From a virus (Duplodnaviria; Heunggongvirae; Uroviricota; Caudoviricetes): DNA of 2,837 nucleotides. The position numbers were made by a program, and so were the translations under genes. The stretch lies in the IMG/VR virus record IMGVR_UViG_2541047795_000005; one strand, written 5' to 3'. The notes beneath the pieces are model-generated. The model was not told the DNA's origin. It saw only the letters and a program-made list of their open reading frames with translations, and made no database searches. The stretch's first letter is position 1, and every line of letters starts with the position of its first letter. Of the stretch, positions 1 through 2,837 are shown one piece after another.

Positions 1-186
1 TCTGCAAGCGCGGCGGCTGCTTCTGCCACTGCATCAGCTAACAGTCAAAAAGCAGCAAAAACCAGTGAAACCAACGCAAAGGTGAGCGAAACAGCGGCTG
101 CGAACTCAGCGAAAGCATCGGCAGCAAGCCAGACGGCAGCTAAAGCAAGCGAAGATGCAGCCAGAGAGTACGCAAGCCAGGCTGCG
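1..186 (+). repeat. Ala/Ser-rich low-complexity coding repeats (fibre shaft region) inside the tail-fibre CDS
   Basis: Translation SASAAAASATASANSQKAAKTSETNAKVSETAAANSAKASAASQTAAKASEDAAREYASQAA shows reiterated A-A-K/S-A-S units built from GCN/AGC/AAA codons. GC is locally high (hand count about 53-58% on 60-nt blocks). The approximate end of the repeat is judged by eye. Confidence 0.55.
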
Positions 187-1506
187 GAGCCGTATAAATA
201 TGTCTTACAGCCGCTGCCTGATGTGTGGATACCATTTAACGATTCGCTGGATATGATTACGGGCTTTTCGCCATCATATAAAAAAATTGTTATTGGTGAC
301 GATGAAATAACGATGCCTGGCGACAAGATTGTTAAGTTTAAACGTGCATCGAAAGCAACCTATATTAACAAATCTGGTGTGCTGACAGAGGCTGCCATTG
401 ACGAGCCACGATTTGAACGTGATGGCCTGCTTATTGAGGGGCAAAGAACTAATCTTCTGCTTAATTCAACAAATCCATCTAAATGGAATAAGTCAGGCAA
501 TCTGGAACTCACAGAAATATCCACGGATTCTTTTAATTTTACTTATGGGAGATTTACTGTAAAAGATACTCTTATTGGTCAGACAAGTGCTATTAATATC
601 GTAACGGTTTCTGGCAGTAAAGGGTTTGATGTCACAGGTGATGAAAAATATGTGACCATTTCATGCCGTGTAAGAAGTGATGTTGAAAATGTAAGGTGTC
701 GTTTAAGATTTGAACACCATGATGGTTATACTTACACTTTTTTGGGAGATGCTTACCTCAATTTATCAACACTTGTAATTGATAAAGCTGGTACTGCTGC
801 AGACCGTATTATTGCAAAGGCTGTAAAAGATGAGGTTACTGGTTGGATTTTCTATCAGGCTACAATTAATGCACTAGATACAGAGAGCATGATTGGTGCG
901 ATGGTTCAATACGCTCCTGTAAAAGGTTCAGGCACAGCATCTGGAGACTATCTGGATATCGCAACTCCACAAGTGGAAGGTGGATCAAGTGCTTCGTCAT
1001 TTATTGTAACTGATATAACTGCAAGCACTCGCGCAAGCGATATGGTGACAGTCCCAATCAAGAATAACCTTTATAATCTTCCTTTTACGGTTCTTTGTGA
1101 GGTACATAAGAACTGGTATAAAACGCCAAATGCAGCGCCACGTGTTTTTGATACCGGCGGTCATCAAACCGGAGCGGCTATTATTCTTGGCTTCGGTCGT
1201 TCAACAGATTACGACGGATTTCCTTATTGCGATATTGGAGGAGCTAACAGACGGGTAAACGAAAACGCATCGCTTGAAAAAATGGTTATGGGGATGCGTG
1301 TAAAGTCAGAGCAGTCTACGTGCTCAGTAAGTAACGGGCATATATCCAGCGAAACAAAAACCACATGGTCCTGTATTCAGAACACCGCAATTATCCGTAT
1401 TGGAGGCCAGACTACAGCCGGGTTACGTCATTTATTTGGTCATGTCAGGAATTTCAGAATATGGCACAAGGCATTGACTGATGCTCAGGTGGGGGAGTCA
1501 ATCTAA
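1..1506 (+). CDS. Phage tail-fibre / receptor-binding protein, 5'-partial (gene starts upstream of the window), with a C-terminal LamG/concanavalin A-like lectin-type signature
   Basis: Frame 1 is open from nt 1 with no stop until TAA at 1504-1506, so the GTG at 82 given by the ORF track is internal, not the true start. The translation begins SASAAAASATASANSQKAAK..., Ala/Ser-rich low-complexity repeats typical of fibre shafts. The C-terminus ...GLRHLFGHVRNFRIWHKALTDAQVGESI (nt 1420-1503) resembles the terminal strand motif of LamG-type jelly-roll domains. The segment ...GVLTEAAIDEPRFERDGLLIEGQRTNLL... resembles phage structural proteins. The gene is followed by a translationally coupled downstream gene. 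Confidence 0.8.
   Translation, partial: SASAAAASATASANSQKAAKTSETNAKVSETAAANSAKASAASQTAAKASEDAAREYASQAAEPYKYVLQPLPDVWIPFNDSLDMITGFSPSYKKIVIGDDEITMPGDKIVKFKRASKATYINKSGVLTEAAIDEPRFERDGLLIEGQRTNLLLNSTNPSKWNKSGNLELTEISTDSFNFTYGRFTVKDTLIGQTSAINIVTVSGSKGFDVTGDEKYVTISCRVRSDVENVRCRLRFEHHDGYTYTFLGDAYLNLSTLVIDKAGTAADRIIAKAVKDEVTGWIFYQATINALDTESMIGAMVQYAPVKGSGTASGDYLDIATPQVEGGSSASSFIVTDITASTRASDMVTVPIKNNLYNLPFTVLCEVHKNWYKTPNAAPRVFDTGGHQTGAAIILGFGRSTDYDGFPYCDIGGANRRVNENASLEKMVMGMRVKSEQSTCSVSNGHISSETKTTWSCIQNTAIIRIGGQTTAGLRHLFGHVRNFRIWHKALTDAQVGESI
1491..1497 (+). promoter_or_regulatory. Shine-Dalgarno-like ribosome-binding site for the CDS starting at 1506
   Basis: GGGGGAG lies 8 nt upstream of ATG 1506-1508, and the ATG overlaps the upstream TAA stop (TAATG), which suggests translational coupling. 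Confidence 0.55.
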
Positions 1507-1787
1507 TGAAAGATTTAACACTCAAATTTGAAGACAGGGCCGACTTTTCGGCCTTTATGGAGAGTATTGGCTATTATGATGACGAGTCGATGCAGGATGA
1601 TATTCTTATCGACGTGATAGGTAACGTGTACAAAGAAACCGGAGAACTGACTGAAGATGGCGAACCGGTATGTGTTAAGGAAGACGGATATTTTGTAAAC
1701 GTGCGCATCATTAATGATTCGCAAATATCGTCATTATTCGATGAATACGTGGTTGCTGTTGAGCATCAACTTCGTGGCTGGATGTGA
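1506..1787 (+). CDS. Small strongly acidic hypothetical protein (93 aa), function unknown
   Basis: ATG at 1506 overlaps the stop of the upstream fibre gene, with an SD-like GGGGGAG upstream, and the ORF ends at TGA 1785-1787. By hand count it has 22 Asp/Glu against 7 Lys/Arg in 93 residues. I recognise no domain. It sits between two fibre-like genes on the same strand. Confidence 0.6.
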   Translation: MKDLTLKFEDRADFSAFMESIGYYDDESMQDDILIDVIGNVYKETGELTEDGEPVCVKEDGYFVNVRIINDSQISSLFDEYVVAVEHQLRGWM

Positions 1788-1790
1788 GGA
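1786..1790 (+). promoter_or_regulatory. Shine-Dalgarno site for the CDS starting at 1797
   Basis: GAGGA (within tGAGGAAGaaaaATG) with a 6-nt spacer to ATG 1797; it overlaps the TGA stop of the upstream gene. Confidence 0.6.
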
Positions 1791-1796
1791 AGAAAA

Positions 1797-2330
1797 ATGG
1801 CTACATCGACAGTAATTCCTGATGACATCAAAACGCTAAAATCCGACGTTAGCAAATTAAAAAACGATCAAGGAAGCTACGCAACAAAATCTTATGTAGA
1901 CAATAAAGAAGAAATCGTTGGTGATTGGTATGTATCCTGTTATCAGAAGATATTGCCAACTACTGGAGCTATATTTAGGGGTAAGCTGCGCTCGACTAAC
2001 AAGACGGCTGGAATTGAAAACGCTTATAGTGAAATATACACCAGAAAAAGTATTGACAGTCCTGAAAACGCAATGGCGCGCCTTATCATAAATAATAACG
2101 GGAAAAGCATTTTCTGGGACTTTAGCGATCTTTATGGCGGAACGATGATTTTTCCCGGTGGCAGTGGTTACCTCAAAATGGGTAACTGTCTCATGTCATA
2201 TGGTAAGCGGGGAAGTAACGCGCTTATTAAATTTGATTATACCGACTCATTACAGATCAAATATGCCAATCATGGGTCGACCATGACATTAAACACGCAA
2301 GGAACCGCGTATGCTGGTGTGTCTGCGTAA
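1797..2330 (+). CDS. Tail-fibre-like protein (177 aa); probably the N-terminal body of a fibre gene whose C-terminal chaperone domain is now the separate ORF 2391-2837 (possible pseudogene fragment)
   Basis: Good SD and ATG start. The N-terminal segment DIKTLKSDVSKLKNDQGSYATKSYVDNK looks like a short coiled-coil or fibre motif. The ORF is AT-rich (about 33-37% GC on hand-counted blocks). It ends at TAA 2328-2330, and the same frame reopens immediately and runs into the S74 domain. From memory only, the pair loosely resembles short fibre-remnant ORFs annotated in cryptic E. coli prophages, but I cannot verify that and assign no symbol. Confidence 0.6.
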   Translation: MATSTVIPDDIKTLKSDVSKLKNDQGSYATKSYVDNKEEIVGDWYVSCYQKILPTTGAIFRGKLRSTNKTAGIENAYSEIYTRKSIDSPENAMARLIINNNGKSIFWDFSDLYGGTMIFPGGSGYLKMGNCLMSYGKRGSNALIKFDYTDSLQIKYANHGSTMTLNTQGTAYAGVSA

Positions 2331-2378
2331 TTATGGGGAAATTCCAGCCGTCCTGTTGTTTATGAAGTCGGTGTTGAT

Positions 2379-2383
2379 GGTGG
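2379..2383 (+). promoter_or_regulatory. Weak candidate Shine-Dalgarno (GGTGG) for ATG 2391
   Basis: GGTGG lies 7 nt upstream of ATG 2391. The same bases are in-frame codons (GVDGG) of the open spacer, so this may be coding sequence rather than a dedicated RBS. Confidence 0.3.
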
Positions 2384-2390
2384 CGCTTAT

Positions 2391-2837
2391 ATGTTCTATG
2401 CGCAGAAAAATACCGATAACACCTATATGTTAAGCGTTAATGGTGCATGTCATGCCACCGCATTTAACCAGCATTCCGACCGGGATCTGAAAGACAACAT
2501 TCAGGTGATCGATAATGCAACCGACCGCATCCGTAAAATGAACGGCTATACATACACGCTTAAAGAAAACGGTATGCCCTATGCTGGTGTCATTGCACAG
2601 GAAGCTCTGGAAGCAATCCCAGAAGTTGTAGGTTCCGCAATGAAATATCAGGACGGTGCGAGCGGATCGGAAGGTGAAGAAGGTGAACGTTATTACACAG
2701 TAGATTATTCTGGTGTTACTGGCTTGCTTGTTCAGGTAGCCAGAGAGTCAGACGACAGAATAACAGCACTGGAAGAAGAAAACGCAGAATTAAGACAAAG
2801 ATTATCTGTAATTGAGGCGGCGCTTGCGTCTAAATAA
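2391..2837 (+). CDS. S74-type intramolecular chaperone (self-cleaving) domain protein, 148 aa; likely the detached C-terminal part of the upstream fibre gene
   Basis: The translation contains the hallmark layout of the C-terminal intramolecular chaperone domain of phage fibres and endosialidases. It has HS-DRDLKDNI with Ser and Lys five residues apart (the Ser-Lys dyad), then GYTYTLKENG, then AGVIAQEALEAIPEVV, then YYTVDYSGVTGLLVQVAR, then a terminal coiled coil ITALEEENAELRQRLSVIEAAL. It is in the same frame as ORF 1797-2330. The first in-frame start after the TAA is ATG 2391, and the stop is TAA 2835-2837. Confidence 0.7.
   Translation: MFYAQKNTDNTYMLSVNGACHATAFNQHSDRDLKDNIQVIDNATDRIRKMNGYTYTLKENGMPYAGVIAQEALEAIPEVVGSAMKYQDGASGSEGEEGERYYTVDYSGVTGLLVQVARESDDRITALEEENAELRQRLSVIEAALASK
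2478..2834 (+). other. Peptidase S74 / intramolecular chaperone domain with predicted autocleavage site between Ser (2475-2477) and Asp (2478-2480)
   Basis: Motif match by eye to the S-D-x-x-x-K catalytic arrangement and the conserved GxIAQE and coiled-coil blocks of this family. Domain boundaries are approximate. Confidence 0.6.

Follow-up and report, generated by a model that had tools for sequence, protein, structure and literature searches.

A short S74-type tail-fibre gene of an Escherichia coli prophage, most probably inactivated by a single-base nonsense mutation

Introduction

To our knowledge, S74 chaperones act only in cis. This view draws on general knowledge and on the cis architecture found in DT57C, T5 and K1F (PMC4728585). 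In DT57C, the corresponding Pfam domain (PF13884) is present in both LtfA and LtfB (PMC4728585), and work on BASEL indicates that lateral fibres may comprise one, two or more proteins (PMC8594841). A Ser/Lys dyad with the two residues five positions apart has been described for both endoNF (S911/K916) and MyRF (S587/K592) (PMC3742443, PMC8326128), and MyRF is cut on the N-terminal side of the serine, between P586 and S587, a position equivalent to S911 of endoNF (PMC8326128).

Here, we analysed a 2,837-nt stretch of prophage DNA (the window, at its full length) that carries an S74 domain in an unusual setting. Intact homologues hold this domain in cis at the C-terminus of the fibre, whereas in the window that arrangement is absent, as a TAA lies between the two parts. 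We conclude that positions 1797-2837 very probably represent one short accessory tail-fibre gene inactivated by a single-base nonsense mutation.

Organization of the locus

The window contains four co-directional reading frames of 501, 93, 177 and 148 codons, the last two of which encode exactly the proteins EQT40432.1 and EQT40433.1 of Escherichia coli HVH 182 (4-0985554). The source scaffold is KE700603.1 of the draft assembly GCA_000458705.1. The features discussed below are the following:

1..1506, + strand: 3' part of a lambda-Stf-like side tail fibre gene (last 501 codons plus TAA), by PHROG 1419
1506..1787, + strand: orf93, a small conserved gene with no assigned function between stf and the S74 fibre gene, by PHROG 1361
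1797..2330, + strand: 5' fragment of the S74 tail-fibre gene, codons 1-177 plus the premature TAA, by PHROG 4563 positions 1-177
1908..2329, + strand: recombinant (mosaic) patch carrying a private variable N-domain allele, by 94 differences
2319..2471, + strand: conserved fibre motif WGN..R..V.E.G...FY.Q.N...NG, about residues 175-225, by its match to T4 gp34
2328..2330, + strand: premature TAA at codon 178, next base T, by reading of the frame
2331..2390, + strand: former codons 179-198, LWGNSSRPVVYEVGVDGGAY, outside both ORFs, by translation
2391..2837, + strand: ORF of the 3' fragment, codons 199-346 plus TAA, 148 aa, by Pfam S74
2475..2630, + strand: Peptidase_S74 core (PF13884), by Pfam

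The locus forms the right-hand end of a lambdoid prophage with the gene order L, K, I, J, lom, stf, orf93, split gene and orf97, beyond which the chromosome continues with an ABC-type metal transporter operon and genes for a universal stress protein, a porin and pyruvate:ferredoxin oxidoreductase. The first frame of the window is open from base 1, and a 95-N scaffold gap inside stf ends 2 nt before the window. It matched PHROG 1419 'tail protein' (E = 5e-268, positions 291-793 of 793) as well as the NCBIfam spike-fibre domain NF048003 (E = 9e-16), and its homologues are annotated stf in Tritos and the PhiR phages. The C-terminal part of this large fibre gene shares 73-92% DNA identity with tail protein genes of Nonagvirus phages and of phages of ~108-110 kb, which are probably T5-like. 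A Pfam search of the C-terminal 501 residues of the Stf-like protein returned no S74 (PF13884) domain.

The ATG of orf93 overlaps the stf stop codon (TAATG). The orf93 product matched PHROG 1361 (E = 2.5e-46), its exact sequence is present on at least 1000 contigs, and the gene occupies the equivalent position in Tritos, PhiR11_1, JenP1 and ESCO3. The cassette stf - orf93 - S74 fibre is common to temperate lambdoid prophages and virulent Nonagvirus phages, and together with orf97 it is placed at the end of the late operon. A preliminary description of the locus had proposed a nonsense mutation in a decaying prophage. Its first half is supported, as detailed below, but decay is not apparent in those neighbours that can be assessed: L, K, I, J, lom, orf93 and orf97 each have a full-length gene call, and stf is interrupted by scaffold gaps.

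ORF 1797-2330, which has a GAGGA Shine-Dalgarno sequence upstream, and ORF 2391-2837 lie in one frame, separated by a single TAA and a 60-nt spacer that is free of stops in that frame; here, the preliminary description was exact in its coordinates and in the spacer peptide. A stop-free run of 20 codons has a chance probability of ~(61/64)^20 = 0.38, which is not significant alone, so continuity has to rest on homology. The stop coincides with the beginning of the conserved motif and precedes the cleavage residue Ser227 by 49 codons, and ORF 2391-2837 comprises the last 28 residues of the mature fibre followed by the whole S74 chaperone domain. Residues 179-198, made by neither ORF, include W180, G181 and R185, which are invariant in an alignment of 21 sequences, as well as V188 and E190, which are nearly so. 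The spacer (2331-2390) offers no in-frame ATG, GTG or TTG ahead of 2391. The sole sequence resembling a ribosome-binding site there is a weak Shine-Dalgarno-like GGTGG 7 nt upstream of ATG 2391, which is Asp-Gly-Gly coding sequence that intact copies share.

Independent expression of the downstream ORF was considered and rejected: promoter or terminator signals did not rise above shuffled-sequence expectation, the RNA search gave no Rfam family match, and no tRNA gene was found within 20 kb.

Homologues of the interrupted gene

PHROG 4563 ('tail fiber protein', 346 positions) spans both halves, with residues 1-177 aligning to its positions 1-177 and the translation of 2331-2834 aligning to positions 179-346. 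Since this family covers both halves and the homologues are single ORFs, we regard the region as one gene. Intact homologues measure 345-351 codons, and all those examined carry a sense codon at position 178, which bears out the earlier proposal of a nonsense mutation in a normally single polypeptide. The close DNA relatives in E. coli Ecol_316 (97% over the window), E. coli 266917_2 and the phages Tritos, PhiR11_1, JenP1 and ESCO3 are annotated as one CDS of 1041-1056 bp.

A relative of the gene was present at 80 IMG/VR loci, five of which were cut by contig ends. The 75 complete copies comprised 69 uninterrupted genes of 346 codons, two of 345 codons and four lesioned ones, that is, 71 of 75 were uninterrupted. 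Codon 178 varies among intact copies (CAA, 40; AGT, 13; AGA, 9; TTA, 7; AAA, 5; CGA, 3), yet it is always a sense codon, and no relative conserves a stop at this position. At least 80% of 1797-2400 is covered in 638 complete E. coli genomes. The intact 346-aa protein forms clusters of 2132, 906, 161 and 148 members. The 177-aa product is a singleton among ~15 billion proteins; the lesion is private to the strain. The exact 148-aa sequence also occurs inside an intact prophage copy (L067), and the residue at which its ORF opens, Met199, is replaced elsewhere in the family by Leu, Ile, Val or Gly. Neither a conserved stop nor a conserved start at 2391 thus exists in this family.

Protein architecture

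The intact protein is a chain of 346 aa, made up of an N-terminal stalk, a variable domain of ~140 residues, the conserved fibre motif and the C-terminal S74 chaperone. Its N-terminal segment consists of short repeats, the number of which differs between homologues in the 21-sequence alignment, and it probably forms a coiled-coil stalk. An AlphaFold2 monomer of an intact homologue (P0032), computed with the same alignment, predicted a helix in this segment, in a model of poor overall quality (mean pLDDT 53, pTM 0.28).

The family profile matched chains of T4 gp34 (4UXE, 5NXF, 5NXH and 9X3R) at positions 174-223 with E-values of 4e-6 to 6e-5, the chaperone-bearing tip of phage S16 gp37 (6F45, E = 3.5e-8) and MyRF (7DC3). 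In the case of gp34, the likeness concerns the repeat motif of the proximal long tail fibre (4UXE, 5NXF, 5NXH; E = 4e-6 to 1e-5), which corresponds to about residues 175-225. In contrast to gp34, however, the motif is present in a single copy located directly before the S74 cleavage site, and the remainder of the protein is unrelated.

The downstream part matched Peptidase_S74 over residues 227-278 (E = 2.5e-14; 53.7 bits against a cut-off of 22), followed by a long C-terminal helix. The predicted catalytic residues Ser227 (2475-2477) and Lys232 (2490-2492) lie in the sequence S227-D-R-D-L-K232 and are each at least 90% conserved in the 21-sequence alignment. Cleavage had previously been placed at the Ser-Asp bond, which does not agree with the family, whose members are cut N-terminal of the serine (PMC8326128). 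By analogy, the cut is expected here between His226 and Ser227, and the mature fibre would comprise residues 1-226.

A second gene copy and the reality of the stop

Two N gaps lie just upstream in the scaffold, and between them sits an orphan contig of 601 nt (7507-8107 of locus L006). This contig is a second copy of the gene, covering codons ~15-214 and identical to L067. It is uninterrupted, reads TTA at codon 178 and has flanks identical to the window, which indicates that HVH 182 carries the gene twice and that the assembler collapsed the identical flanks.

This duplication brings up the possibility that the TAA arose as an error in assembling or base-calling the draft genome and that HVH 182 has an intact gene. 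Apart from the N gaps and the second copy with its TTA and identical flanks, the position of the stop fits such an error: base 2329, which makes the stop, closes the series of 94 differences between the copies, 4 nt past the previous one, and hence sits exactly at the repeat boundary, where consensus errors are likeliest. Moreover, the 177-aa product is known from NCBI only, with no independent (Logan) assembly among its sources. However, a TAA is hard to obtain this way, as a single switch between the known CAA and TTA alleles gives CTA or TTA, never TAA, and a chimera of the two is an unlikely source of the stop. Reads over base 2329 should also cover the copy-specific positions 2324-2325, which would make the copies locally separable, and comparable real lesions occur in other genomes and in one sequenced phage. 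On this evidence, we consider an artefact unlikely; the idea would fall with many HVH 182 reads, or an amplicon, bearing TCTGCGTAATTATGG. As a genuine change, base 2329 could be a point mutation located just beyond the patch boundary.

History of the allele

All 94 differences from the second copy and L067 are confined to 1908-2329, which marks the N-terminal domain as a recombinant patch. Around it, the window is identical to the prophage type represented by L067 and L068 at ~1100-1907 and 2330-2837 and over 191 further bases. In the comparison with Ecol_316, positions 1-1500 are identical and nearly all of the ~85 differences lie within 1860-2345. Measured against four intact alleles, the patch has a dN/dS of ~0.24, indicating that it diverged as working coding sequence and not by drift after inactivation. 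As the sequence outside the patch is identical to intact copies and the patch itself has been under purifying selection, the lesion looks recent.

A search for the ancestral allele returned no protein with more than 80% identity to the 177-aa fragment. Likewise, exact-pattern scans, one spanning codon 178 as NNN and two from the N domain, gave no exact DNA match in viral, metagenome and species-representative genome collections. Codons 179-183 are exactly those of the TTA (Leu178) allele, and codons 176-177 correspond to neither common type. A patch-specific TCTGCG is located at 2322-2327. Judging from these sequences, ancestral codon 178 was presumably TTA (Leu) or CAA (Gln), with one base change leading to the stop either way. 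The stop lies 4 nt beyond the last marker of the patch, and on a rather improbable reading it was generated by the very recombination event that brought in the private N-domain allele. If so, mutagenesis would be linked to mosaic junctions in fibre genes.

Further lesions in the family

The gene is interrupted in other members of the family as well:

L008, a Logan contig from ERR5414565: TGG to TGA at Trp180
L053: TAG at codon 195
L054: TAA at codon 300
Phage PhiR47_1 (PV340566): TAG at codon 295
P0061: a 295-aa protein ending after residue 295
L081 and L090: A6 to A7 (+1) frameshift at codons 83-84

Pseudogenes make up ~5% of the complete prophage copies, with lesions at scattered sites. Many of the abundant 254-aa 'Met93' proteins (such as P0044, 232 members, and P0056, 400 members) probably stem from the frameshift; their Met93 start is seen in several allele backgrounds. 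Taken together, inactivation of this accessory gene for an S74 short fibre is frequent among E. coli prophages, and it is seen in at least one sequenced phage as well.

A programmed stop hotspot at codons 178, 180 and 195 was considered and discarded, given that lesions are also seen at codons 295-300 and around codon 84, that L008 was found via the shared 148-aa ORF, and that a single change creates a stop at few codons of this stretch. The 148-aa ORF results from a stop anywhere between Val175 and Met199, where only about six codons are one step away, and the closeness of the three stops is largely a matter of ascertainment.

A split gene or a suppressed stop

As an alternative, the preliminary description had raised a genuinely split system, in which a 177-aa fibre would be served by a 148-aa S74 chaperone acting in trans and translated from ATG 2391. 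The intact S74 domain with its Ser/Lys dyad, the weak GGTGG 7 nt upstream of the ATG and the independent stop of L008 (TGA at codon 180), which lies two codons away and leaves an identical 148-aa ORF, would all suit this arrangement. The layout of the gene does not: the break falls 49 residues inside the mature fibre and not at the boundary between fibre and chaperone, and 20 residues, among them W180, G181 and R185, end up in neither product. Neither the stop nor Met199 is conserved, the arrangement is a singleton, GGTGG merely encodes Asp-Gly-Gly, and the nearby stops are explained by ascertainment. In DT57C (both fibre proteins), T5 and K1F, moreover, S74 is C-terminal and in cis (PMC4728585). 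An explicit direct test of trans-complementation by an endosialidase chaperone was not found in the literature searched. With the arrangement a singleton, the break 49 codons ahead of the serine, invariant residues lost and Met199 variable, a working split gene is very unlikely.

TAA followed by T is the most efficient termination signal in E. coli, and this strong context, the lack of a tRNA gene within 20 kb and of any RNA family match, and the absence of the stop from all relatives make it scarcely credible that programmed readthrough or a suppressor tRNA yields some full-length protein, even though the frame continues open to the end of its 346 codons and no damage is seen in the sequence beyond the stop.

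Discussion

We thus favour the reading of 1797-2837 as a single gene that was broken by one nonsense mutation. Codon 178 would have been turned into TAA by one change, either TTA to TAA or CAA to TAA, and translation from 1797 would end after 177 residues. The resulting product would lack the last 49 residues of the mature fibre along with the whole chaperone and, given the cis role of this domain in characterised fibres, would be expected neither to fold nor to trimerise. The 148-aa ORF would simply be what is left of the gene, with a fortuitous internal Met as its first codon. Where the gene is intact, its chaperone should bring about trimerisation of the fibre before releasing itself by a cut in front of Ser227. 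From what is known of the family, we infer that the function of the gene has been lost.

The significance of these findings lies mainly in annotation: the entries EQT40432.1 and EQT40433.1 are best combined into a single one marked as a pseudogene, or corrected if reads disagree. On this reading, the locus is an ordinary strain-private pseudogene, not a new fibre-plus-chaperone system. A functional split, if true, would be the first case of an S74 chaperone that works in trans, on a fibre truncated at its C-terminus and encoded by a gene of its own, and would overturn the cis-only view of these chaperones; nothing in our analysis supports it.

The S74 chaperone of K1F endosialidase and MyRF resembles the one described here in its PF13884 domain, the Ser/Lys spacing (SDRDLK in the present case), the long C-terminal helix and, in intact homologues, the C-terminal location of the domain. 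In contrast to these proteins, the carrier here is very small, with a mature part of 226 residues and no enzymatic domain, and a stop 49 codons ahead of the cleavage site severs S74 from its fibre.

The nearest studied analogue is the branched LtfA/LtfB fibre of DT57C. As with LtfA/LtfB of DT57C and DT571/2 and Ltf (pb1) of T5, the fibre genes are adjacent and lie in a side-fibre locus, and the small fibre is predicted to end in an autocleavable PF13884 domain. By this likeness, the small S74 protein would form a second, accessory fibre branch. The two loci differ in that the C-terminal 501 residues of the Stf-like protein in the window are without PF13884, which in DT57C is part of both proteins, and in that a 93-aa gene is inserted between the fibre genes.

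With respect to the lesion, the frequent breakage of this gene resembles the dispensable side-fibre gene of laboratory lambda. As reported by Hendrix and Duda in 1992, stf of lambda PaPa is said to be inactivated by a frameshift that leaves the phage otherwise viable. In both cases, one small mutation turned an accessory side-fibre gene into two ORFs with the rest of the tail module intact, and PhiR47_1 likewise carries a stop in its S74 gene. The present locus differs from lambda PaPa in that the mutation is a nonsense substitution and not a frameshift, and in that it affects the S74 short fibre and not stf.

Two copies of the S74 fibre gene in HVH 182

The stf gap of the HVH 182 scaffold that holds the window (L006) contains a 601-nt orphan contig (L006 7507-8107), flanked by N runs at 6067-7506 and 8108-8202. 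Identical in sequence to the IMG/VR prophage loci L067 and L068, the contig spans codons ~15-214 of a further S74 fibre gene copy, which carries no interruption and reads TTA at codon 178. HVH 182 thus carries two related copies of the gene, and the assembly of this stretch of the scaffold is unreliable.

Disrupted copies at other loci

Nonsense mutations and a frameshift were found in the following copies of the S74 fibre gene:

L008 38-1078 (Logan ERR5414565 contig): invariant Trp180 codon changed from TGG to TGA
L091 3520-4560 (phage PhiR47_1, PV340566.1): TAG at codon 295
L081 1634-2672 and L090 3001-4039: frameshifted copies, window equivalent ~2039-2050

The TGA in the Logan contig is an independent nonsense mutation, located two codons from the window stop in an L067-type allele background, and the 148-aa downstream ORF is identical to that of the window. 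In PhiR47_1, the stop falls within the S74 domain. This phage is deposited as a complete genome, in which the broken gene is annotated as two hypothetical proteins of 294 and 37 aa; phage propagation may not require the S74 fibre gene.

L081 and L090 represent two different alleles sharing the same +1 frameshift, an expansion of an A6 run (CTCAAAAAATGG) to A7 at codons 83-84. Many 254-aa database proteins begin at Met93, just 3' of this run (clusters of n = 232 and n = 400), which, together with the shared frameshift, suggests either that slippage has recurred or that a broken allele has spread widely. In the window allele, the run at this position is only A5.

Variation in the N-terminal region

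Window positions 1908-2329 form a sharply bounded mosaic patch with 94 differences in 422 nt between identical flanks. The variable N-terminal domain encoded there is a private allele, with a dN/dS of ~0.24. No second copy of the patch was found in any collection searched. Such a patch is typical of receptor-binding-domain shuffling. The N-terminal segment itself consists of short D-I/V-K/T-T-L-K-S-D-V-S-like repeats:

Alignment A2 (S74 fibre protein family) columns 1-90, window protein residues 1-35: N-terminal repeat segment

Repeat copy number differs widely among the homologues in this alignment, so that fibre stalks would differ in length.

Gene organization and fibre relatives

The stf stop and orf93 start overlap (TAATG, window 1504-1508), and the S74-gene ATG lies 9 nt 3' of the orf93 stop, with GAGGA in between (window 1785-1799); from this arrangement, the three genes look translationally coupled. 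The S74 fibre gene is always accompanied by orf93 (PHROG 1361). Directly 3' of the S74-gene stop and 5' of orf97, just beyond the window end, lies an apparent intrinsic terminator: a GC-rich hairpin with a trailing T run (GGGGCCGAGCGCCCCGTTTTATT; L006 11042-11075).

Window 208-1481, which encodes the C-terminal portion of the Stf-like fibre, gives a match to NCBIfam NF048003 (head spike fibre domain) and a weak one to Laminin_G_3. Its DNA is 92% identical to a tail protein gene of vB_Si_CECAV_FGS017, a 110-kb Salmonella phage, and shares 73-90% identity with fibre genes of Nonagvirus/Seuratvirus and other virulent coliphages, which points to exchange of fibre modules between temperate and virulent phages.
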